Shown here: positions 20,061 through 60,498 of the stretch, one piece after another
Layout of the letters: each line of letters starts with the position of its first letter
Numbering within the stretch: position 1 is the stretch's first letter
Source of the DNA: Rotaria magnacalcarata
Taxonomy: Eukaryota
Length of the DNA stretch: 64,000 nt
Direction of reading: 5' to 3'
Assembly (NCBI GenBank): GCA_965140935.1
Contig: CBCSLL010000157.1
Span: forward strand, 33,416 to 97,415
Notes under the pieces: model-generated
The model's database searches: none
What the model was told of the DNA's origin: nothing
Seen by the model: only the letters and a program-made list of their open reading frames with translations
Made by a program: the position numbers and the translations under genes

Positions 20061-20792
20061 CTATTTGACAAATGGAATAGCTGGTGCTAAACTAAAATTG
20101 TTATCGTCTAAAATACTTTTCGCTTGCACTCCAGTCAAAAAATGAATAAGAATTCCATAGGGACGCACATATGTTGGATCGTTCACCACGTAATATTCGT
20201 TCTTTGAACATTCTGGTACTCGAATTTTTTTAGGATGAATTCGACATTGTAAAGCAACTTCAACATAGTAAGATTTATTATACTGAATTGGTTTCGTTAA
20301 TCGACAATGTTCAATATTATCTGTCAAATGTTTGATCTTGGGTGTTAAAAATACACCTTTTCCACATGTTTTTTGATTAAATATAGATGCATTCTGTCCT
20401 ATATCGACTGAGGTTGTACCCCATTCACTATGACTGCCTTGAAAAACTTTGAAACCCTCAAAGGCTATTGATTTCATTACTTCTAAAACATCACGTCGAA
20501 TTCCATGAAAGCCAACTGCCCATTCACCAGCAGCACCATCACAGGCAAGCCAATGTGCACCACTAGAGCCAAATTTGTCGATATTCAAACCATAGCGTAT
20601 CCAACCACGAAATGGAGTGTAATAGTCCCATTTACCACGGATCAATTTTATTGGTTCTTCATTACAATATCGAAGATCACCTTTCTTATCAAATAGATAA
20701 GATGGAAGTCCGAAAAAATTTGCTGGATTAAAGCTTTGAATGACACGTTCGAGATCATTTTCCGCCCAATTGTTAGTCGCCATTCTAAACAT
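20061..20792 (-). CDS. Standalone PARP-catalytic-domain-like ADP-ribosyltransferase, intronless, 243 aa
   Basis: AVGFHGI matches LFHGS; TCGKGVFLT matches GxGIYFA; SKNEYYVVNDPTYVRPYGILIH matches tankyrase AEYVIYRGEQAYPEYLITY. An in-frame stop lies 4 codons upstream of the ATG, so there is no N-terminal extension. Single exon. Confidence 0.65.
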   Translation of the reverse strand: MFRMATNNWAENDLERVIQSFNPANFFGLPSYLFDKKGDLRYCNEEPIKLIRGKWDYYTPFRGWIRYGLNIDKFGSSGAHWLACDGAAGEWAVGFHGIRRDVLEVMKSIAFEGFKVFQGSHSEWGTTSVDIGQNASIFNQKTCGKGVFLTPKIKHLTDNIEHCRLTKPIQYNKSYYVEVALQCRIHPKKIRVPECSKNEYYVVNDPTYVRPYGILIHFLTGVQAKSILDDNNFSLAPAIPFVK

Positions 20793-47044: not shown

Positions 47045-48482
47045 GATCAAAACAATAGAAAAATATTCATATAAATGAAAAGAGTACTCTTTGAATATTA
47101 GCGCTTTATTACTGTATTTTCTTTATATGGATGCCTCATGAAATGATTCCATTGAATTTGAAACAAGAAAATAACCTAACTGTAAGTATAATCAATGGAT
47201 TGATTGTAATTGATCTTGTGAGTCTTGAGATAAGACTAATAACTTCACAAGAGCAACTAATAGAACCCTTCACTATGTGTAAATTAAAATGAACATTAAT
47301 AAAAGTTATTTACATGGGCTTGTTGCCTAAATAATAATATATAGATGCAGCAAACGAATTTTCATGATGATGTTAGAAATCATGATGATCGTCTATATCA
47401 AAGTTCTGATGTGATGGTAGTTTTACATCGAAAGCTCAACTTTATTTAAAATAAAATAAAAAATAAATGAATTCATTTGCTGCATCTATATATTATCATT
47501 TAAAATGAACAAGCTTGAGTTTCTTTCTGACATGTTTGCATGATCAATTTGAATTGCATAGGCAAAATATTTCATTTGATTTACACGAAACTAGAATTTA
47601 AATTATTAGAACTTCATATTTCTAGTAGGGTCTATTATGATATAGTGGATAGTAAAGAGAATATTTGGTTCATGAGATAAGAGAATGGCAAATTTTAAAT
47701 GTTTCTTATTGAAAATGGTGACGAGGGATTGTTCCAGTATCTAGTCAGTTTTCATTTTATAAAAAGCTCAATTTTTACTAGTATGTTTCAATACTGTTTT
47801 TCTAACTAGAATATTTGTTTTTAAAACGATAAATACATCAACAATAGAAATTTATTTGAAAGATATCATAGAAGATGAATTTGAAGCGAAACGAATAAAC
47901 AATATGAAATAAAATTTCTATTAAGAATTTCTATTGTGTACGAATGAAAGAAATTAGTAAGTGTATTCGCAACATATTTCTGAAATTCTGTCTGAATTCC
48001 TATCGACCATAACGATATTAATGAAAAACAATAATTATTTTATCTGTCAATACACAACGAGTAGTTAATAATAGATTGATTTGATTATAAATGCAAGTTT
48101 TCCGTCTTTTACTTTAGCCATATAATATATTCATTTGGGAACTGAAATATTCATTTTTATAATCGATCAAGCTATGTGCTTCATTGTCTCCAAGAACCTT
48201 ATTCTTAATTTCGAACCAACTTCATCCTTCATATAGAAGAAAAAAGTTTCTATTTTTTCTCTAATGAAATCGTATGCTGTTGAGATCCACTTTTATATTT
48301 TTCCAAAGCTGTAAGATTCACAAGATACCTATATTTTGACATATGAATAAGAAATGTTTTATGGATTGTTGCGATAGAACAGATGCATTCACATGCAGAA
48401 TGATGCATTTGGATTCAATCATTTGAACTGAAAAATATCAAACCCATCTCATTTATTATTATTTCAACGAAATCAATGTTGA

Positions 48483-50001
48483 TCATTGAAAATGTTTTGA
48501 AGAACATGAACTTCGATCAATATCAAATTTATCAATGCGGCCAGTACCATAATTTGAAACAAATATATTTCCATGTTGATCAAATGCTAAATCATTTGCT
48601 TGACTAAGTGTATATTGCTTTTCACCGATAATGATTGTACCATTGACACTATACCGTGTGAAATGCATAACTCTACTGTAATATCCATCAATAGAATAAA
48701 TATTACCCGATTGATCTAGATGAACTGCTCGAGGCCATCGCAACTTTCCTACAATAATTCCTTCTTTTGCATCTTCTGTCCATTTCATAATTCGATCATT
48801 AGATTGATCCGCTACGTATACAGTTCGATTTTGATCAACAAAAATAGCTGAAGGTTCATTGAATTGATCAAGTCGATTACCTTTACCGTTTCCACCAGCT
48901 ACTAGCCGATCATGCGCTATATTTTCTCCTAATATCCATCGTGTAACTCGATGATTATCATGTTCAGTAATATAAAGTAAAGCTTGGTTATCTAATGCTA
49001 AACCGGTACAGTATATATTATTGATTAGTATTTCTCCTTGTTGGGCACGCCTTGCCCATCGAATAATCCGTCGATTTCTTGCATCACATATAATTAAACT
49101 TCCATCTTTTGGGTCCATCAATATATCTGATACCTAATCAAATGTAATCTAGTTTTTGAACGAAGCTAACACTCCTTTTTCTTCTACTTACCCAACCAAG
49201 TTGATCAGTTCTATTTCCTTCCCCGTTACCTCCCGCTATAACATTTCCACGCTTAGCAGCTGGTTGCCACGTTACAATACGTGCGTTTCCATTATCAGAA
49301 ACATAGAGAGTATTTGTTTTCAAATCAAATACAATGGCAGTAGGACTTCGAAGTTGATCGAGTGCTGTACCACTATAGTTACTGCCAGCAACAGTTCTAC
49401 CCTGTTTAGCCCAGCTTACATTACGACAAACCACCTCAGCTGGTATCGGTGATAATGTAGATGAACCTATTCGATATCAAGGTAGAATGGAAAACATTTC
49501 GTTTCACTAGAAAATTATTTTTCTACTTGAATTTGTCTGCAATGGCGGACAAAGATCTAGTGCAGCCATACCAGTTGGATAACACAATGGTTGACCTATT
49601 GATAACTTTGGATGATGAATACAAACAGTATATGGTTGATCACAATAGTAATTTATTTCATTGCATGTTCTTAGTTTTGAAGCATTTAAATGAAGATATG
49701 CACAAATTCCACTTTGTTCACCTGCTGATGAAAACGGAAGACAGCCACAATCAGGATTAGTTGAACAAGGAGCATAGAGTGGTAAATTTCGACATGTTTG
49801 ACCTCTTGTCAAAACTAAATGAGACGAAATACAATAATCAAAATACAATTAGATAATTAGCAGTGTTATACCGAATAAGCTAAACCGTAATAAACAAAAA
49901 AAAATGAATAATTAAATAATTATTTTATGAAAATATTTACCTTTGTAATACAATGAATGCGATAGTAGAAGGAAGAAACATTCTATTAATCATTTTCATT
50001 C
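48483..50001 (-). CDS. Secreted NHL-repeat protein (six NHL blades) with a Cys-rich N-terminal domain; 4 coding exons, 420 aa
   Basis: Exons 49943-50001 (MKMINRMFLPSTIAFIVLQ signal peptide, donor GTAAAT), 49527-49804 (Cys-rich: GQTCRNLPLYAPCSTNPDCGCLPF…CDQPYTVCIHHP…LCPPLQTNS), 49192-49466, 48483-49133 (stop TGA). Phases sum to 1263 nt. Six units of the type AGGNGEGNRTDQLGWVSDILMDPKDGSLIICDARNRRIIRW and AGGNGKGNRLDQFNEPSAIFVDQNRTVYVADQSNDRIMKW. Confidence 0.75.
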
Positions 50002-53000
50002 GCAAATAATGGCACACGATACGAATCAGATCTATTTATCCTTCAATTACTGTTATTTGATATGTGTTGGAATTGGAAAAACATACGAATAAAAACGATG
50101 GTATTGCCAAGAATAAGCTTTGAAATGATGATGGTAGCTTGAAAGGAAAAAAGGATCCCATTAAAAATTGATTTTGTCACATCATCATCTAACTAGTAAT
50201 AGATGACAATGATTGTTTCACTGCAAAACGAAATCAAATATAATAATTTACCGCATTATCGATATCTTTGAGAATAAGAAACATAAGTGTTCAATGCTAT
50301 TATTATAGTCATTTGTGAAATTTCTATGACAAAGTCGAGCATCGTTCGTCAAATAGGTGTATCAGTAACGAATTAGCTGCTTGATAACCTATTGATCGAT
50401 GCACATAGCGATTGTTTGAGAATTTCGTTTCCATTTTATTTCTTCGTACTATATGCGAACACTTCAATATTTTCTTCATCTAGGGAGCTTTTCATTTTTG
50501 AAAACTTGGAAATCAATCATCATATACAGTTGGAGCTATCACAAAACAAAACGTCGTAGAAACGAGCAAGATTTTAAAAAACCACACGTTATCCTTCGAA
50601 AATGTTTGTTTGAGTTTTTAAACGATATAATATAAATTTGCAAAAGTTGCAGTTCAAAATGGATTTTAATGTCACTTGTATGATTGTGAAGTTCATTGAC
50701 CTTTGAGTTAAGTAAAATTGCTAGCAGAATGCTGTATTTCATCAAAATCATTTGTAATTTAGTTAATAAAATGAACCAATGAATATCAAAGTGAAGTAAT
50801 AGGGTGAATATTGTCTTACAAAGAACAAAATTGTCAATGTTTAATTTTGTTTCTGAACTTCTACCACGTGATGTATATTCTTGTTTTAGAACAATTATAG
50901 AAATACAGTTTTTACAGTTGATATAATAAAGACAAATTCTTTTAGCCAAAGTCACGAATGTGAACCGGCAGTTCTAAACAAAATTCGTTCAGCGTGTGAA
51001 ATTCATAAAAATCAGTCACATTCTGTAGCTTGCCAACAATATTTAATGGACGCGACTCGGCTGCATTAGCAACACTCTTCCACTACTCATAAATGATACT
51101 CACTTTTTATCAATCAACAAAGAATTGAGACATATTTTGATCAACCAAAACAAAAGATCATGACTTTTATACAGTATCGATTTAGGTAATTTATGTATTC
51201 CCCACTAATATACGTATGCAACTGTATATATTCATATTCTATGTTTCGATGTCAATAATCTCTCCAATACAAATCAGACAGCGCTTCAATTACTTCGAAG
51301 CGTCAACGACTTCTATTGTCGATTATTTTTTTAGTAATTTCATTCTTTGATTAAGTTTAATCTTGAAATTATCGTGAATGATTGTCAGACAATAATGAAT
51401 CTTGCAAAATCTGCCAAAGGATGTATAATTGAAAATTGAAAATTTATTTATACAACTTTATATCGAAATAAAATGTTCTTGGAAGCTCTTGTTTTTCGTG
51501 ATTATTTACTCAAAATAGTATTGCATTTAAAAAAGCATGACCCACTAAAAACTTATCAATCTTAGATATGCTACGTTATAGAGCAGATCATACAATACAA
51601 ATTGCAATCGAACTTCAGTACATGCTTGAATACACTGGAGAGTACGTTCAATATATTCCACAAGTTTTATAATATAAAAAACTGACACCCAATTCTTCCA
51701 GCTTTATATCTCTACAGCTCGAGATTGATATATTTAACTTGAGATTATGGTTCGAAACGATAGTCCGATGAGCAACTAAGAATTTATTATCGGAATTAGT
51801 GTAAATGAACTTGAATAATTCTTTAATTTGAAGGCAATGTTAAACGATTTTATTCAATGCTTGATTCTAATCTAATCTATTCATTATCATCGTCCTTTAC
51901 TATGCCGCATAGATATATATACTTTCATGTTTTTATTTTGTAATGAAAATTGGAAAATTCTTCATATTTTCAAAAAACAATTGAACTTTTGTCCAAAATC
52001 TCACAAAAACGATTGTGATTCTCTGTATCGTTGTATTCACTGATCGAAGTATCGATTCCATACAATCTAATAATGAATTGGAAAATTTTTAAGTGAGTCA
52101 ACTTTTCTTGAGATATGATCTCTTCTGATAAAATTTTATTAGACTCAAAAAGATCTCGTCAGAGTATCTGAGTACAATTTAAGTATAGGTTATGAAACTT
52201 CTTTGAATAAGGGACGACAATATTTTTGCAAATTTACTGTATCATCATTTTCCTATTTAGTTTTTACAGTTTTTTCGCATGTCTTTACTGTTCATGTTTT
52301 GCTTTGGATATATCGATAACAACATTTAGTTCCAAATCATAAAAGACTTTAGAGAAAGTTTTAATCGTTGTGTTTTATAAATAACAATATGTTCCAAGCT
52401 AATGTGTAAAAGAAGACCAAAATTTAGAGTAAGGACAACGTAATTTATTCTGTGCCATCCGCTATTGTCTTAGTTTAATTATAATTGCAGGGGGATGTTG
52501 ACTCGCTTCCAAAACTGTAGATAAGAATTGAAACCTAATGTATACATCGACAATGATAGTTCGTAGATTTTCGCTATTACTCTATCAGCTCATTTATATA
52601 ATTGAAACCCGGATCTGATCTATGCTTGATTTTTCAAAAATTGGAAGACAAACCATATAAAATTCTTTCTCTGAATATAATATTTCACATCAAACTATGA
52701 TAAATATCTATCTATTCTACGAACATTCAGACTTGAACTAGAAATTTCTCAAACCAAGACTCTAAGAGCTAGATAAAAGGGTGTGTCCATGATCACGATG
52801 TGTCATTGTCGGTGTTTTTTGCAATTAAATTCTCACTCTGAGAGTCTACTAGTCATACATCATCACATATTAGCTATCGTTAAACTGCCCCTCCTTCCAA
52901 CGATCTCACAGACTAAAATCTGACATTGCACAGTCCCATTCTCATCAGCAGTCTATTATTCTTAAGACGTGTTTTCAAAGCACTATTCACAGGATTACGT

Positions 53001-53787
53001 TTGATTTGCTGCTAGTAATACGAAAAAGAAAATACGAGAATTTAATCTTAGTAAAAACGATCTATATTGATTTGTAACTATTACTCAAAGATAGCAATGT
53101 TTTTTCTTATTTTTTACTTTAATTTATATTCAAAAACATATATATGTTGATAACTATGAAAGAAGCAAGTACAAATGAGTTCAATAACAATAACTAAATC
53201 AATACTAATCAGAACAGAAACTTATTTGATTTAATTCTTAAGCATAGTAAACCAAAAAAAGAATTGTTATTTTAAAAATTCGACTACAATATAAGCTGCT
53301 TATACCATATTTTTAAAATAATGCAGATATACACAATGACCTACATATATCATGCGTTCAAAAATGCTAGCTGTGTATCATAAATCGTTATACAGAAACA
53401 AGATAAAATGTTAAGCTATCAAAATAAACGTTTTCTGAAGTGCAAATTTCAAAGCAATATCACTTCGAAGTTATTTCAATAATTGGAGCAATATTTTCAA
53501 AAGAAAATTGAAGGATTTCATTTTTTTTTACTTTTGATTATTTTCGTATTTATATCAGATCAAATTTCACGAAATCTCTGCCAATCATAAAAATTAGAAC
53601 TATGCTTTTCTTAGCTCTAATCATGAATATACAAGAGCTTATGAGCATCAAGCTCTCAAGTTTCTAATTTGATTTCTGAACATCTATTTAAATACAAGAG
53701 CTTAAATTCGATATTGTCAAACGAGACAAAAAAGGAACAGACAGAAATACACTCATCTCGGACGTGTGCTTTTCAAGACACTAATCG

Positions 53788-54801
53788 ATGAAGTTAATTT
53801 TACTATTGTCGATTGTTGCGATCGCAAGTGTACACTCATGGACATTAGACTATGCTGGCGCTAAACAAATATCATCACCACATTTCAATCGTGGACGCCA
53901 AGGTCAGGCAATCACATGTAAGCATTTTTATTCTTTCGTTATTTTTATTTTTATCCTTATTCTTAACTGTTTCGTGTTAAAATACTATAGGTTTAGTTCT
54001 TCATGGTACCGCCGGCGGTGGCACTATTGAATGGTTTCAAAATCCAACAAGTAAAGTTTCAGCACATTATGTTGTAGGTCAAGACGGATCAGTTACACAG
54101 ATGGTCAGTGAAGATGATACTGCATGGCATAATGGTACGTTTCACTTTTTATCTCCACTACATAACAAATATGTTACTAAAAAAGAAACAACTTTTTCAG
54201 CGATAGTAGTTGAAACTTTTTAATGAATCTTAGCTGTTTTGTAATGGTAAAAATCTAGTTTTTTTCCCGGTACGATTCAATAAAAACTTAAGTAACATTT
54301 TTATTAGTATTGAGCTCATCTTTTCATCGTACATGAGTTCAACAGACTAATTCTCGATAGAAATATGTTTGATGAAAGTACATCGTGTTTTTATGAATTG
54401 AATCATCAACTTAATTTTGAAGATAAGTATATGAACTTGAATTTGTGTATCGATTTAAAAAAAGTTTAAGTAATCAACTCGATTTTTTTCAGAATGCGAA
54501 TTCAGCCTAGAGAATATTAAAATTTCAATTTTCTAAGTCAATCATTCTAGGCGTTGTAACAACAAACTCACAGTTTTATGGTCGCCCAAATCCAAATCTA
54601 TGGTGTATTGGTATTGAATTCAGTCGCAATATACAAAACAATAATGTAATGCCTGAAGTACAAATTCAAGCTGGCATTCGATTAGTTGCTGATATCAAAC
54701 GTCGTTACAAAGGTATTAATATTCATACACACGACCAATTTAGCGTTGGGCGCACATGTCCAGGCCCAAATTTCCCACTTGCTCGATTCAAAAATGCTTA
54801 A
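53788..54801 (+). CDS. AmpD-type N-acetylmuramoyl-L-alanine amidase (Amidase_2 fold) with a eukaryotic signal peptide and two spliceosomal introns
   Basis: Exons 53788-53917, 53991-54134, 54551-54801 (GTAAGC and GTACGT donors, tatag/ttctag acceptors; stop TAA). Signal peptide MKLILLLSIVAIASVHS. Matches to E. coli AmpD: SPHFNRGRQGQ~SPHYDCRP; KVSAHYVVGQDGSVTQMVSEDDTAWHNG~RVSAHCLIRRDGEIVQYVPFDKRAWHAG; NLWCIGIEFSR~NDFSIGIELEG; THDQFSVGRTCPGPNFPLARF~GHCDIAPDRKTDPGPAFDWARF. Confidence 0.8.
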
Positions 54802-55510
54802 ATATCAAGCCTGAATAACTCATCTATTTAATTGTATGCTGCTCTTGTTGTACTTAAATGTTTATTTCATAAATAAATAAATGGAAAAAGTTACCTATGT
54901 AGAGCAATTAGCATTTTAATATCACTTTGCTTGATTTTCTTACATTCATTGTATTCATAATAGAAAAATTAGAGAAGTCAGATTCTGACTCACATCTTCG
55001 ATATTCTTTATTGCAAAAATAGTCGGAACGAAGATTATGTTTTCTATGTGGGATATTGAGTTTTTATGATAAAAAATTGATTTGAAGGTACGTAATAGGA
55101 ACATAAAGACATATGACGAATCTTTAGTTGAAAAGAAACTGTGGATTTTCATAATAAAAATACGTAATCTTTGAGCTAACTTATAATGAATGGAGATACC
55201 TTGAATCATTATGAGTCACGTATCGATGGCAAAATAGCGTAAGAAAGAATCTCACTAAAATCCAACATCACAAAATCAATTAACATAACAGATCAATCAA
55301 TTGAGATGTGGAGTGAAACCGAATGAATTTATTTCTAATTCAATCAGACAATATGAATCTTTATAGAACTCTTACAGCAAAGTTAAATAATCTTGTTATG
55401 GATTTAAAAAAAAGTATACCAATGCAAGTGTTGATTCGGATATAATTACTCGAAACAATAGATAGATCTAATTTTTCTTGTTTAGTAGATCAGAAAATAA
55501 AAATGATGAA

Positions 55511-55864
55511 TTAATATCGATCATGATAACCAGTAAATCTATAAATGTTATTCATATTTGGCTTATGATTACTATAACCATGACGATTTGATTTATTTAC
55601 TATTCTATAGCAGTGTAAGACATTTTTTCCGAGGTTCTCTTTTTCGATTTTCTTAAATTCTTTTTCACCAATTATTTCAGTCAAGAGACTAATATTTACA
55701 TCAGCTAATGGTTGCCAACAAAAACTTGCCATTTCATTATTATATAATGGAGAATATCCAATTTGATTTGTTAATAATACTACTAATTTATCTTTATTTG
55801 TTACAACATTCGCATCTTGATCTGTTTCATTTTTTTGTGGTAAAACTAATAAATTTTTTATCAC
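55511..55864 (-). CDS. ORF immediately 3' of the vWA ORF, in the -1 frame; possible C-terminal continuation if a 1-nt indel is assumed
   Basis: This frame is open from just after the vWA stop (…CLGNRDNSVTFNFTSETIRIVTYKILNAKTLEGFGGLLRKYCPKRCGPVFSEVIKNLLVLPQKNE…HDRY*). One extra T in the ttt run at the vWA stop (gtt tag g) would fuse the two frames. TFNF recurs on both sides of the junction. Confidence 0.3.
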   Translation of the reverse strand: MIKNLLVLPQKNETDQDANVVTNKDKLVVLLTNQIGYSPLYNNEMASFCWQPLADVNISLLTEIIGEKEFKKIEKENLGKNVLHCYRIVNKSNRHGYSNHKPNMNNIYRFTGYHDRY

Positions 55865-56013
55865 TTCAGAAAAAACTGGACCACAACGTTTTGGACAATA
55901 TTTTCTTAATAAACCACCAAAACCTTCTAATGTCTTGGCATTTAAAATCTTGTATGTAACGATACGTATTGTTTCAGATGTAAAATTAAATGTTACGGAG
56001 TTATCACGATTAC

Positions 56014-58482
56014 CTAAACATTAATCATTAAGAAATTAAATGTTGAACGAATTTGAAAAATCTCTTTTTCTTTCATAGAAAATTTACCTTGAATGCTTTC
56101 ATCGATGACAGTCAACACATTTGATTTTGTTACATTTTTTGGTACAGTATGATCGAAATATAAAATCATTAATAATTCCTTTCGTAAATCATCATAATCG
56201 ATAATATTTTCAATATAATTTTCATTCATATCGCAATATTTCAACATATTTTTAATAACAACGGGCACACCGAAACTATTTTCATTATCAATAGTTTTTA
56301 AAATATTTTTAATATATTCAACTTCAGCTTCATGAGTGATTAATTTTCGATCTTTACCTGTGACTGTTTCTGGAATCAATTCGATTGGTTTACACATTTC
56401 ATCATGAAAATACTGAATGAAACTTTTTTCAACAAAATCAGGATCTTGCTGATTTATATCAATACCAATTGTGTCTTGATTACTTGCAACCGTTTTAACT
56501 CTTTGACTTTCATCACCATATAATAATCGTTCGATAATATTAATTTTGTCGGTAGGCAAATTTTGATGTAAATATCGTCGGAGATATTCATAATAGACTG
56601 GCATTAGAATAGTCTTTAAATCGCCTATTAAATATCCAATAATCAATGGAATACTTAAATCATATGTTCCATTTTGTCGTCCATGAATACTGCTAATAAA
56701 ATTTTTCAAGGTTTTTTCACCATACGCACTTTTGAAACCGATGGATTCAGTCACAATAAAATGACAGACTTTTTCGAATTCAGTTATCAAGTTTTTATTT
56801 CTTGTTGTACCAGTACGCAATATAATGATGTCATATAGTAGTTTAAGTAAACCAATTTCTTGTTCTTTATCATAACCATATGAATCTAAAGTAAACATAT
56901 ATCCTAACCAAATACCTTCTAAAATACGTATACGTTTCATGTGTTCATAATTAATATACAGTGGTATTACTGCATTGATTTTTTCATGTAATTGACCAAC
57001 TACACAATAGGTATCATTAATTCCAGCAAACAATCCGTAATTACTATCATCCGCTTGTTGTTGTTGTTGTTGTAATAATTGCTGTTGTGAATTTTTCGTC
57101 AAAGTCATTGCAGCAATAAATGAATCATATGAAATCAAGGTGTTTGACACACTAATCAATTTTAATCCTTTCGTTGGTGATGTAATGGCTTGTTCATTAC
57201 GTTCGATTAATATTCCTAAGCACATGATATTATCCGAAGTTTTTCTCATCATTTCATATATATCATCACTAGAATATGTACAAACCCAGTCAGATTTCTG
57301 TTCTTTTATTTTATTCCAACCTTCTTGATCTATATTTTTTCTATAACCCTCTAATATTCCACTAATATCTGTTTTCCGAAAATAATCAACATTTTTATTA
57401 ATACGTAAATCTAATTTTTTACGTCGCTGTGCATTAGCAAACGTAGCATCGTGTCTTAATGCACTCAGTTTTAATTTGACTTGTTCTGGAACTTGTCCCA
57501 TTTTAATTTGTGTAAATAATTTTGTGTATTCCATCATTCGTTCGTCAATTTCTTTTTTAATTTGCTCTAATTCTAATTTTTCCATAAGATCAGCACTTGC
57601 TGTTGGAATAATTGAATTTAAATATGTACGAATTTGGTGAACGGATTCTTCGTTATCTGGAGAAACTAAAGTTAATGCACGTATAACATGAATTGGGCGA
57701 ATAGGTTGCATAATTTGTAATGGAATTTTTGATTCACCATCCGGCGATTTAAATATAATTTCTTGAATTCTCGTATTATCAATCGTCATATTGTCAATTA
57801 AAAATCCAACTGTTTCTTCATTACTACTTGATGTATACGATTGTCCATTAATAACTATTGTAAATTCTCTAGCCGACATTGCATATTCAAACATATCGTT
57901 GAAATTGCTTTGTAATTCTGCTGATTGAGTTGAATATCGAAATAAACCTTCTTTTGTGCCAAATTTTCGAACTTGATCCAAAAAATTATTATTCACTTCA
58001 CCAAAGCCAATGACATGAAATATAATAATAATTGTTTTTGAGAGTCCACTGATTGATAATTTTAACATTTGAATAGCTCTTTTCAATGCATCTTGTGAAT
58101 CAGTATCTTGACCATCAGTCATAAAAATAAATGTGGTTGATTTTTGATTATTAACTAAATGATTTTGAATAGCAGTAAAGATTGAACTGAAACTAGTACC
58201 ACCATTTGCATCTAAATCTGTGTTCTCAACAGATTTTATTGTTTTTGTCGTGTCTGCCCTTGTATTATAAGTGAACAATGGATATTCAATTTTTGTACGT
58301 TGATAAATATCTTTTAAAACTGCACAAACATTACGAATAGGACTGCCGCTCATTGAGCCTGATACATCTACACAACAGATTATATTTTTGCCAGATGATG
58401 AATCGACTTTTGGTACTTTAACTTCGATGTAATGATGTTCACCACCACCAACAGTAAAAGGAGTTTTGAAATATGTAGCCAT
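56014..58482 (-). CDS. Intronless 822-aa protein with an N-terminal von Willebrand A domain (intact MIDAS motif) and a long uncharacterised C-terminal region
   Basis: MIDAS DxSxS = CCVDVSGSMSGSP; second metal-site motifs TSFSSIF and FMTDGQDTD. No signal peptide. An internal (CAA/TTG)n run encodes QQQLLQQQQQQ (~57054-57080). Longest uninterrupted ORF in the window. Confidence 0.7.
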   Translation of the reverse strand: MATYFKTPFTVGGGEHHYIEVKVPKVDSSSGKNIICCVDVSGSMSGSPIRNVCAVLKDIYQRTKIEYPLFTYNTRADTTKTIKSVENTDLDANGGTSFSSIFTAIQNHLVNNQKSTTFIFMTDGQDTDSQDALKRAIQMLKLSISGLSKTIIIIFHVIGFGEVNNNFLDQVRKFGTKEGLFRYSTQSAELQSNFNDMFEYAMSAREFTIVINGQSYTSSSNEETVGFLIDNMTIDNTRIQEIIFKSPDGESKIPLQIMQPIRPIHVIRALTLVSPDNEESVHQIRTYLNSIIPTASADLMEKLELEQIKKEIDERMMEYTKLFTQIKMGQVPEQVKLKLSALRHDATFANAQRRKKLDLRINKNVDYFRKTDISGILEGYRKNIDQEGWNKIKEQKSDWVCTYSSDDIYEMMRKTSDNIMCLGILIERNEQAITSPTKGLKLISVSNTLISYDSFIAAMTLTKNSQQQLLQQQQQQADDSNYGLFAGINDTYCVVGQLHEKINAVIPLYINYEHMKRIRILEGIWLGYMFTLDSYGYDKEQEIGLLKLLYDIIILRTGTTRNKNLITEFEKVCHFIVTESIGFKSAYGEKTLKNFISSIHGRQNGTYDLSIPLIIGYLIGDLKTILMPVYYEYLRRYLHQNLPTDKINIIERLLYGDESQRVKTVASNQDTIGIDINQQDPDFVEKSFIQYFHDEMCKPIELIPETVTGKDRKLITHEAEVEYIKNILKTIDNENSFGVPVVIKNMLKYCDMNENYIENIIDYDDLRKELLMILYFDHTVPKNVTKSNVLTVIDESIQGKFSMKEKEIFQIRSTFNFLMINV

Positions 58483-60498
58483 TGGTTAAGAAAACCACAA
58501 AAAATAGTTTACAAAATCTAAAGTTAATTTAATTATAAAAAAACTATTCAATCCAATGTACTGTCATCGAGCTTCTAGTGGAAAAAGATCTCTTATTTAA
58601 ATGGATTTATTTTCTGGAGCACTTAGAAAATCTCCAAGATATAATTAAATTGGGTTAAGTTTTCTCTCGTATTATCTCAATTCGTACCAAAAATTATAGA
58701 GTTAACTCATCATAAAATAGAAAATTCTATCAATAACACATCGTTATATGCTACTTGATACTAATTTCATGAACTTCCGAAGAAACCAATTTTTTTCGAA
58801 TATCTGTATTCATAGGTGTTTTAGAGAATACGATAAAATAATAAAGAAATGAGTGACCCTATATATAGAAATACTGATAGCATGTATTAGTTTCTTTGAA
58901 TTTCAATAGTGCGTTTCATACTACAATGCTTATTTAGATATGTAATAGAACAATTATTATATTCTAAACAAAATTAGTGCATCTAAAATGAATAATTTTG
59001 TACTTGCGATTGAAAGAAGTCGTATGTGTTGTGTTTTAATCACACATAGAATTTCTTTAGAAATATATATCATTGAATATTGCACAACATTGGAAAATGT
59101 GCAATGACTGCAAGATGAAATTTCCATATGTGACGCAATACCAAAAGAAAAGCAATAAATAAAAAGAATATGCTTCTGTTTTTATTAGTCTATCATAAAA
59201 CCAATGTTGACAACAGGTATAAATCTAATTAAAAACGAAACAAAATGGTAGAGACCTCGAATTCTTTGAAAAATGACGTAATAGTGAAAAATCCACATAA
59301 CATGTCTTAGTGAAGAGTACAATTTTTAAGTTTCTTTTGTTTTAAGATCTTCATGAAAAAAGCAATAATTTTGACTGTGTACATTTACGAACTCTCTTCA
59401 AATGAAAGAACTATGCGCATCGTCAACATGATGTGTTGCCGATTGTCAGGTTTTCATCAACAATTTGATACGACTCATTATTCTATTCTCATGACGAAGA
59501 CGAATGTATTTCGGAAGATCATTTATTTAAGCTGAATTCATCAGAAAAACAATTTGACAAATCCAATTAGACATATTTCAAAGCATCTTTATATCATATT
59601 TTCTCGTTTTTTTAGATGTCATAAACAAAGTCATCGTTATCGTTTAGTAAATATAAATCTGAAAACTAAGCCCATATAATCGATCTGGCTATTACAAATG
59701 TGTTGAAGTAGTCTCAGAAACGGCCTAGCAGACGATTGTCTCTCAAACTTATTAATTTTCAAATTTTAAATAATTTCAAACATTTCCATAGTATAACATT
59801 TTTTCTTGACTACAGTGAGCAAGTGCAATGCGTCATCTTTTGTTCTCTCCTGAAATAGTCAACTAATATTAATGAGATGATATTGTGCTGCTTCTTAATA
59901 TATATGTAGATCTTAATATACCACCCGAATTTGAAAAAAAAGAATGTTCTCATGTATTTGCTTCATGATTTTTATGAAGCGTAGGTCATTTTGTTTTGGA
60001 TATTTTGACAGTATTCAGTGACGTCTAGCATCACCGAATCAAAGGTGGGTTTGGGTGCAGATGTAGGGTATGAAGTTGGTTTTAAATCGATGGTTTCAAC
60101 GTTTACACCCTATCTTAACGTAATATTTTATATTGTATTCTGAAAATCTCCTTAAAAATCCGCTTTCTATCATACTCCACATTTTGAAAGATAGTTTCTA
60201 TAGTTTCCTACATCAAATTCATAGAGATCAATATTGACCGAAAAATTTGTAACAACTCAATTAAATTCACAAAAAAGCAGTCTGAAATGACGTGTTAACT
60301 ATAGTGTACCAATCATGATCGAATTCCGAATTGAATTATTCGTCAAAATGTGATGTATCTCATCAAGACATGATTCTAAATCAATCAAATCTAATACCAG
60401 TTTTTGTTTGATTTCATAAACATTTTATCATCATCATATGTCTTGAAATACTCAATTCTACAATCTATGGATAATACAAAGGAATATTTTCTCCGTAC

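Follow-up and report, generated by a model that had tools for sequence, protein, structure and literature searches.

We analysed a window of 64,000 nucleotides from the genome of the bdelloid rotifer Rotaria magnacalcarata (GenBank assembly GCA_965140935.1, contig CBCSLL010000157.1, positions 33,416 to 97,415 of the forward strand), and in it a gene on the + strand that encodes a predicted peptidoglycan amidase, probably inherited from a prokaryote or a phage. All positions given below are those of the window. An earlier note on this DNA had proposed a gene model in which two GT-AG introns (73 nt and 416 nt) separate three exons and the product has 174 residues, and our analysis reproduced this model exactly. 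Exon 1 (53788..53917, +, 130 nt) carries codons 1-43 and the first base of codon 44, and has the same length in the sequences L001, L014 and L015. It is followed by intron 1 (53918..53990, +, 73 nt, GT-AG, 22% GC), which interrupts codon 44 in phase 1. Exon 2 (53991..54134, +, 144 nt) codes for the predicted zinc ligand His48 and for the SAHYVV..AWHNG blocks, and intron 2 (54135..54550, +, 416 nt, GT-AG, 27% GC) interrupts codon 92, again in phase 1. Exon 3 (54551..54801, +, 251 nt including the TAA stop codon) codes for Glu114, His152, Arg159 and Cys161. The resulting coding sequence of 525 nt, translated into 174 residues, has 40% GC and 25% GC at third codon positions (GC3), in a window of 29.6% GC, and an in-frame TAA is found 6 nt 5' of the ATG. 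No second amidase copy was found within the window. The product is 100% identical to CAF1446711.1, an 'unnamed protein product [Rotaria magnacalcarata]', and to other entries, and UniRef names the identical protein N-acetylmuramoyl-L-alanine amidase; the gene has thus already been annotated automatically, and the identity confirms that the window is DNA of a bdelloid rotifer. The public annotation of R. magnacalcarata was made by RNA-seq-guided BRAKER (PMC7943196).

The flanks of the gene carry candidate expression signals. A TATA-like element, TATTTAAATA, is located at 53685..53694 (+), approximately 95-100 nt 5' of the ATG, and is a putative core promoter. Around 230 nt of the 5' flank could be aligned with that of Rotaria sp. 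Silwood1, the orthologue of which has TATATAAAA at the position aligned with TATTTAAATA. On the other side, a match to the AATAAA polyadenylation-signal consensus lies at 54872..54877 (+), 71 nt past the stop codon, where it would presumably serve this gene, and the 3' flank is kept in L001 up to about 54881.

The predicted protein belongs to the Amidase_2 superfamily. Pfam Amidase_2 (PF01510) matched it over profile positions 2-131 of 131 with an E-value of 1.1e-24 and 87.6 bits (cut-off 26), and the blocks that had been likened to AmpD (SPHF, VSAHYVV..AWHNG, IGIEF and CPGPNFPLARF) were aligned residue by residue with AmpD and AmpDh2 by HMMER. Searching the chains of the Protein Data Bank (PDB) with the single sequence returned AmpDh2 (1e-8) and AmpD (4e-8), then a Clostridium phage amidase, AmpDh3 and AmiD, and no peptidoglycan recognition protein (PGRP) at E<=1. 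With a family profile of 22 sequences the values were 1e-16 for AmpDh2, 2.6e-16 for AmpD, 6e-13 for AmpDh3 and 1e-11 for AmiD, followed by endolysins and XlyA, and neither a PGRP nor a T7 lysozyme chain was obtained at E<=10. Outside the bdelloids, the relatives of the 174-residue product were therefore bacterial and phage amidases, not metazoan PGRPs; the earlier note had likewise read it as closer to bacterial AmpD than to PGRPs. The AlphaFold2 model had a predicted local distance difference test score (pLDDT) of 91.2, low only at residues 1-20, and a predicted template-modelling score (pTM) of 0.86. When this model was submitted to Foldseek, the best match was AmpD (2y28, E=4e-12, template-modelling score 0.76, 27-28% identity), then came phage and Bacillus endolysins, with T7 lysozyme also present, and PGRPs appeared first at rank 20, with an E-value of about 6e-5 and 11-20% identity.

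The term 'AmpD-type' held in part only: the affinity to bacterial Amidase_2 proteins stood, while the identity with AmpD proper did not. The score on the AmpD equivalog model (NCBIfam NF008758) was 67.5 bits, the cut-off being 143, a Cys occupies the place of the AmpD Asp, and the protein has a signal-like hydrophobic N-terminus, whereas AmpD is cytoplasmic and has no export signal. The lipoprotein-type traits of AmiD and AmpDh2 are missing too, the protein stopping 13 residues past Cys161, which leaves no C-terminal extension or peptidoglycan-binding domain of some 100 residues, and having no Cys at its predicted cleavage site; the C-terminal tail is the feature by which AmiD is defined (PMC2829048). 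True orthology to AmpD or AmiD was rejected, given the low equivalog score and the active-site differences. Because the match to a PHROG endolysin model (phrog_7698, E=3.5e-19, 70.7 bits) is about as strong as that to the AmpD model, the protein is best labelled, on its sequence, as an Amidase_2 catalytic domain from a rare clade of lysin-like bacterial and phage proteins, and not as AmpD. Thirteen further PHROGs of the lysis category were matched as well.

Five residues, H48, E114, H152, R159 and C161, are invariant in the 22 rotifer and prokaryotic members of the family. In the HMMER alignments His48 and His152 correspond to the zinc ligands H34 and H154 of AmpD, Glu114 to the catalytic E116 (our own numbering), and Cys161 to D164, the third zinc ligand being Cys instead of Asp. 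Arg159, which would stand in for the catalytic Lys, is aligned with AmpD R161; Lys162 of AmpD, which is inserted with respect to the family profile, has no counterpart in the family of the rotifer amidase. The numbering of the AmpD triad is as quoted in PMC2829048. By alignment, the zinc ligands and the catalytic Glu of the superfamily are intact, and metal binding is predicted. The clade of the rotifer amidase has the motif R-x-C-P-G-P, and distant prokaryotic outgroup relatives have K-x-C-P-G; the R-x-C spacing is the same as that of T7 lysozyme, which we take to be K128-x-C130.

The nearest proteins from outside the bdelloids came from metagenomes and were 50-61% identical over the whole catalytic domain (P0010, P0017, P0018, P0020-P0023, P0026, P0030 and L008). 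In an exhaustive scan of 1.84 billion cluster representatives, 6939 matched at E<=1e-3 and 23 at E<=1e-30. Many of the close prokaryotic relatives are long modular proteins (234-695 residues) with extra C- or N-terminal domains, in which a Pfam scan found no family beyond Amidase_2. The gene for P0010 is on a dense bacterial contig of 63% GC together with H+-PPase, TGT and CoaE genes. That for P0020 is on a phage-like or mobile contig of about 100 kb, with SSB, RNA ligase, methylase, MazG and serine recombinase genes as neighbours, and directly follows a gene for a secreted CHAP hydrolase (L007). No convincing holin was seen beside the closest prokaryotic relatives, only the secreted CHAP protein lying upstream in L007. 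Among annotated phage genomes, 120 records contained relatives, at <=37% identity and mostly labelled endolysin or lysin A, in phages with hosts among the Actinobacteria and Firmicutes. The rotifer gene itself is found in no lysis cassette and beside no holin, lying instead in the chromosome between NHL and VWA genes. Scanning 185,579 GTDB species genomes gave one match, in an uncultured Chloroflexi metagenome-assembled genome (MAG; CALBSQ010000192.1, 68% GC, 4-kb contig); since the genomes were scanned for two narrow peptide patterns, absence elsewhere is weak evidence. Bdelloids were the only eukaryotes named in the match list. No monogonont, seisonid or acanthocephalan was named among the matches, no search having been aimed at those genomes.

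The N-terminus had been read in the earlier note as a eukaryotic secretion signal, and it does consist of a hydrophobic extension, signal-like by simple rules, that is absent from the prokaryotic relatives. The part of exon 1 that codes for the putative signal peptide MKLILLLSIVAIASVHS spans 53788..53838 (+), with cleavage predicted before W18. The N-terminus MKLILLLSIVAIASVHS has one basic residue (K2) and a hydrophobic core of about 12 residues, with a 10-residue Kyte-Doolittle mean of 3.4, and the residues V at -3 and S at -1 (V-H-S) before W18 obey the -3/-1 rule. The prokaryotic start 'MTDY' is aligned with rotifer residues ~20-22 ('LDY'), which leaves a rotifer extension of about 18 residues. 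Its sequence varies among species while its hydrophobic character is kept, and it is also missing in one group of rotifer paralogues (group B, described below). Because the prokaryotic relatives begin at 'MTDY', near rotifer residue 20, the data support the view that the signal peptide would be an add-on placed in front of the original start after the transfer.

The two introns are very probably real, in agreement with the initial reading of the sequence: their positions are kept in Rotaria and Adineta orthologues, the exons being conserved and the introns diverged. In R. magnacalcarata, in two genes of Rotaria sp. Silwood1 and in Adineta steineri alike, the introns interrupt codons 44 and 92, both in phase 1. 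Intron 1 measures 61 and 58 nt in the Silwood1 genes and 58 nt in A. steineri, intron 2 measures 388, 879 and 62 nt in the orthologues, and the overall range is 58-879 nt. Intron 2 can hardly be aligned with the corresponding intron of Silwood1, and the exons are 80-87% identical to the orthologues on two environmental contigs, L017 (906 nt) and L018 (2324 nt). A repeat or transposable-element insertion was considered for intron 2 and rejected, no other match to it being present in the window. L017 and L018 carry contiguous orthologues of 174 residues (about 90% identity), in which the exons of the window are joined exactly at both predicted junctions and the introns are absent. Whatever the type of these contigs, the intervening segments are non-coding insertions at the predicted boundaries. 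In Didymodactylos carnosus (L013, 5001-5650), the introns (62 and 57 nt) interrupt codon 56 in phase 1 and codon 118 in phase 2 (codons numbered as in that gene), and the different positions suggest independent gains after the transfer. This Didymodactylos gene model was predicted without RNA-seq (PMC7943196).

Several observations were made on the surroundings and the public models of these orthologues. On L018 (627-2165, -) and L017 (735-905, -) a convergent gene lies only 100-180 nt past the amidase stop codon, and the one on L018 is a long contiguous open reading frame (ORF) that looks catalase-like by eye. These neighbours are unlike those of the window; the contigs may represent different loci or species, or may be chimeric or overlapping transcript assemblies. 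The neighbour of the Didymodactylos gene encodes a Uma2-family protein (PF05685), a family presumably associated with bacteria, and may be another foreign gene. Four public models from Rotaria sp. Silwood2 and R. sordida (P0003, P0143, P0146 and P0160) are 189-205 residues long. P0003 has about 15 extra residues exactly at the position of intron 2, and such residues may reflect the choice of an alternative splice site by the annotation pipeline or real alternative splicing.

The gene was said to sit among ordinary animal genes, and this description fits the locus: the neighbours are of animal type, and their synteny with Rotaria sp. Silwood1 is kept. About 17 kb of the window (46.0-63.2 kb) are collinear with a 1.33-Mb contig of the independent assembly of Silwood1, the order NHL-repeat gene, amidase and VWA gene being common to both loci. 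The upstream neighbour is an NHL-repeat beta-propeller gene (48432..50199, -) and the downstream neighbour a convergent VWA-domain gene (55473..58560, -), each syntenic with Silwood1. Further ORFs of the window encode a choline/ethanolamine kinase (E=1e-61) and a 6-phosphogluconolactonase. The exact amidase protein is found on 13 contigs of R. magnacalcarata assemblies. Orthologues with 73-90% identity are present in R. socialis, R. sordida, Rotaria sp. Silwood1, Rotaria sp. Silwood2, Adineta steineri, A. ricciae, A. vaga (UJR32510.1) and Didymodactylos carnosus, which brings the family to at least eight bdelloid species (five or more of Rotaria, three of Adineta, and Didymodactylos). D. carnosus was chosen by its authors to span the deepest known bdelloid divergence (PMC7943196).

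Some features of the neighbouring genes are recorded here in their own right. Part of the NHL gene (48483-49121, -) has cyanobacterial ScyF/ScyE-type NHL proteins as its best NCBIfam match (ScyF-like, E=2.9e-12, far under the cut-off), and SGL and SBBP propeller repeats were matched too; besides this weak match, the NCBIfam scan of the neighbouring ORFs gave nothing informative. The VWA gene contains an uninterrupted ORF of 822 codons (56014-58482, -) with CoxE-like and DUF2201-like VWA matches and is 84% identical in DNA to its Silwood1 orthologue, the intron-free stretch being unusually long for an animal gene. An uninterrupted ORF of 243 residues at 20061-20792 (-) had no match in Pfam or NCBIfam.

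Bdelloids carry at least three groups of amidase paralogues. Group A, to which the window gene belongs, has a signal peptide, two introns and 174 residues. Group A' has a signal peptide, no introns and 180-211 residues; its members are P0007-P0009, P0011, P0014 and P0019, among them an R. sordida protein, and two genes on metagenome contigs (L009, 3765-4358, and L011, 6001-6543). Some A' proteins end in a basic tail (GRKRH..RRRNFNKSF), and the A' genes are on rotifer-like contigs beside TIR, BTB, LDLa (LDL-receptor-A) and U-box/kinase/LRR genes. Group A' may have arisen by retrocopying of a spliced group-A mRNA, or its lineage may never have had introns. Group B comprises a locus of Rotaria sp. 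Silwood1 (L016, 6001-6656) together with P0012, P0013, P0015, P0016 and P0126, the locus having been examined through P0015. Its proteins of 161 residues have no signal peptide and are presumably cytosolic; the genes have two introns, one of which is 1 nt from intron 1 of group A, so that near codon 44 the phase is 1 in group A and 0 in group B. Intron sliding may account for this offset, or the two groups may have gained their introns independently at one proto-splice site. The ratio of nonsynonymous to synonymous substitution rates (dN/dS), calculated among four genes, was 0.077 for the pair with the Silwood1 orthologue and between 0.11 and 0.20 for the remaining pairs, values that indicate purifying selection on the amidase gene across bdelloids.

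A neighbour-joining (NJ) tree (151 columns, 200 bootstraps) placed the rotifer sequences of groups A, A' and B in one clade (67.5%), nested among prokaryotic sequences. Within group A, Didymodactylos was sister to Adineta plus Rotaria, and the rotifer clade as a whole was sister to P0020/P0022 with a bootstrap of 29%. We favour, with moderate confidence, a single transfer that preceded the radiation of the bdelloids; duplication, gain of the signal on the stem of A and A', and lineage-specific intron gains would have come later.

Three other accounts of the origin were weighed against these data. The nearest non-rotifer relatives of the amidase are prokaryotic, which would also be expected if the locus were bacterial contamination or a chimeric scaffold, an account whose probability is practically nil: the gene has two GT-AG introns, its GC3 of 25% is that of a gene in a 30%-GC eukaryotic window, as against 52-68% GC for the contigs of the prokaryotic relatives, and the ~17 kb collinear with the 1.33-Mb contig of another species' independent assembly, the 13 R. 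magnacalcarata contigs and the orthologues in at least eight bdelloid species all speak against it. Contamination was therefore rejected on introns, base composition, synteny and presence in multiple assemblies, and the animal-type neighbours with their conserved order rule out a contaminant chimera. Scarcely more credible is a native, fast-evolving animal PGRP without any transfer. PGRPs resemble the rotifer protein in their Amidase_2 fold and their zinc site of the His/His/Cys type, and their structures are present in the Foldseek list from rank 20 (E~6e-5). Yet the profile that reached AmpD and AmpDh2 at 1e-16 found no PGRP at E<=10, identity to PGRPs is 11-20% as opposed to 27-30% for AmpD/AmpDh2 and 50-61% for the prokaryotic metagenome proteins, and bdelloids are the only animals named among the matches. 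Sequence, profile and structure searches thus effectively reject a native PGRP.

More weight, although still little, goes to the idea that groups A, A' and B go back to at least two separate transfers, the donors being related. Rotifer monophyly has a bootstrap of 67.5% and the sister relation to P0020/P0022 one of 29%, the groups differ in intron content, and bdelloids gain foreign genes repeatedly (PMC4632278). Multiple transfers are nevertheless unlikely, since A and A' have the same N-terminal extension and 'WT(L/V)DY' junction, both missing in prokaryotes, A and B have introns within 1 nt of one position, and all rotifer sequences cluster together in the NJ tree.

The proposal of the earlier note that a foreign gene was acquired and then eukaryotised is thus supported by affinity, introns, signal, synteny and selection. 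With a probability of about 0.82, we regard the gene as a functional nuclear gene of R. magnacalcarata that derives from a prokaryotic or phage zinc amidase, has been eukaryotised and duplicated, and codes for a protein predicted to be secreted. The ancestor would have been a prokaryotic or phage zinc-dependent N-acetylmuramoyl-L-alanine amidase with the Amidase_2 fold, transferred before Didymodactylos, Adineta and Rotaria diverged. After the transfer, its base composition would have shifted to that of the host, a signal peptide would have been gained as an extension of the original start, spliceosomal introns would have been gained lineage by lineage, and duplication would have given rise to at least three paralogue groups. 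The protein would enter the secretory pathway and lose its signal by cleavage, and a mature enzyme of about 157 residues would be secreted. It would cut peptidoglycan at the amide bond that links MurNAc to the L-Ala of the stem peptide, with zinc held by His48, His152 and Cys161, Glu114 as the general base and Arg159 in place of the catalytic Lys.

A number of points weigh against this reconstruction. The tree is an NJ tree on 151 columns with moderate support, and the proposed donor lineage is drawn from one named MAG and metagenome contigs. The putative signal peptide was judged by the simple rules of hydrophobicity and the -3/-1 residues, and L017 and L018 may represent transcripts, processed copies of the gene or orthologues without introns. 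In the active site, Arg159 replaces the Lys found at that position in distant prokaryotic outgroup relatives, and we know of no characterised R-x-C amidase. Enzyme activity, secretion and expression of the amidase are predictions only, and a digestive role is inseparable from an immune one by sequence data.

As to the role, the enzyme would most likely degrade the walls of bacteria, whether eaten or invading, in digestion, antibacterial defence or both. Bdelloids are bacterivorous filter feeders. Foreign enzymes of peptidoglycan catabolism have been described in Rotaria, mostly as ancestral acquisitions, with a digestive role proposed (Eyres et al. 2015, PMC4632278). The amidase could instead be mainly an immune-regulatory scavenger or antibacterial effector, resembling PGRP-LB/SC, tick Dae2 or aphid AmiD, a view we hold to be possible but the less probable one; such an enzyme would degrade immunostimulatory peptidoglycan fragments or kill bacteria on epithelia. 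Its catalytic residues and secretion signal fit immunity as well as digestion, the signal-less group B suggests functions beyond digestion in the gut lumen, and other animals employ transferred peptidoglycan amidases in dealing with their microbes: the aphid AmiD is upregulated in bacteriocytes (PMC2829048), and in the hookworm infective larvae express amiD (PMC4617383). Eyres et al., however, favoured digestion for such genes (PMC4632278), and classical immune families were little induced in a fungal-challenge study (which does not address the amidase).

More tentatively, and again against the odds, the domain may have come from a phage-endolysin-like, rare, Chloroflexi-associated lineage and grown into a small animal family with divided roles. 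It is similarly doubtful, though conceivable, that the two secreted forms (one with introns, the other intron-less with a basic tail) are lytic or digestive 'animal lysins', and we would put no greater trust in the idea that the signal-less cytosolic form processes peptidoglycan fragments inside cells. If true, the family records independent intron gains at different sites (Didymodactylos versus Adineta plus Rotaria) and amounts to a dated natural experiment on the way in which introns and a signal peptide are acquired by a foreign gene.

The single-transfer origin that we prefer offers a traceable conversion of a prokaryotic gene into an animal one, in which the original start is visible, a signal has been bolted on, the introns are lineage-specific and the composition has been completely reset, while strong purifying selection has preserved the catalytic site. 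Massive gene transfer in bdelloids is textbook knowledge. Because such transfers are commonplace and the gene was already auto-annotated, its surprise value is lower than the earlier note had assumed, and the overall picture is unchanged, since bdelloid transfer and foreign peptidoglycan-degrading enzymes in Rotaria were already known. Searching the literature on bdelloids and N-acetylmuramoyl-L-alanine amidase, we found no paper describing this bdelloid family, and the gene did not appear in the searched part of the supplementary tables of Eyres et al. 2015. A Cys-type, endolysin-like amidase would join a short list of peptidoglycan hydrolases that animals acquired from bacteria, which includes aphid and hookworm AmiD, tick Dae2 and GH25 lysozymes, and the secreted proteins of about 157 residues without a binding module are candidate small lysins.

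Among known systems, the bacterial 1,6-anhydro-MurNAc-L-Ala amidases AmpD, AmpDh2 and AmiD (2y28, 1j3g, 4bol and 2bh7) are the closest solved structures, whether judged by fold or by profile (1e-16 to 1e-11). Like the rotifer amidase, they have both His residues of the active site, a catalytic Glu within the IGIE block and, towards the C-terminus, the block xPGPxF. The rotifer amidase differs from cytoplasmic AmpD by its predicted secretion, and from AmiD and AmpDh2 by having neither a lipobox nor a C-terminal peptidoglycan-binding domain. The catalytic members of the animal PGRPs (Drosophila PGRP-LB/SC and human PGLYRP2) are secreted and cut the same bond with a His/His/Cys zinc site. They have the same fold as the rotifer protein, but a sequence relationship is undetectable at the profile level and structural identity is 11-20%. 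With phage endolysins, the rotifer amidase has in common the similarity of its catalytic domain to PHROG endolysin families, at an identity of <=37%; unlike them, it stands alone with no cell-wall-binding module, has Arg for Lys, and is encoded by an animal nuclear gene with predicted Sec/ER export rather than holin release. The prokaryotic relatives share its H, E, H and R-x-C-P-G-P signature and have their start 'MTDY' aligned with the rotifer 'TLDY', whereas they possess no signal peptide and no introns and lie on contigs of 52-68% GC.

Bacterial Amidase_2 genes that have gained introns and are expressed are also known from other animals, namely aphid and mealybug AmiD, hookworm amiD and the AmiD/AmpD-like gene of Trichoplax (PMC2829048, PMC4617383). 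These genes were acquired independently and from other donors, a Rickettsiales-like one in the case of the aphid. They are AmiD-type, with a His/His/Asp triad and a C-terminal tail, whereas the bdelloid family is Cys-type and much shorter. In comparison with the insect and nematode cases, the bdelloid family is further distinguished by its added signal peptide, its three paralogue groups and its endolysin-like character.

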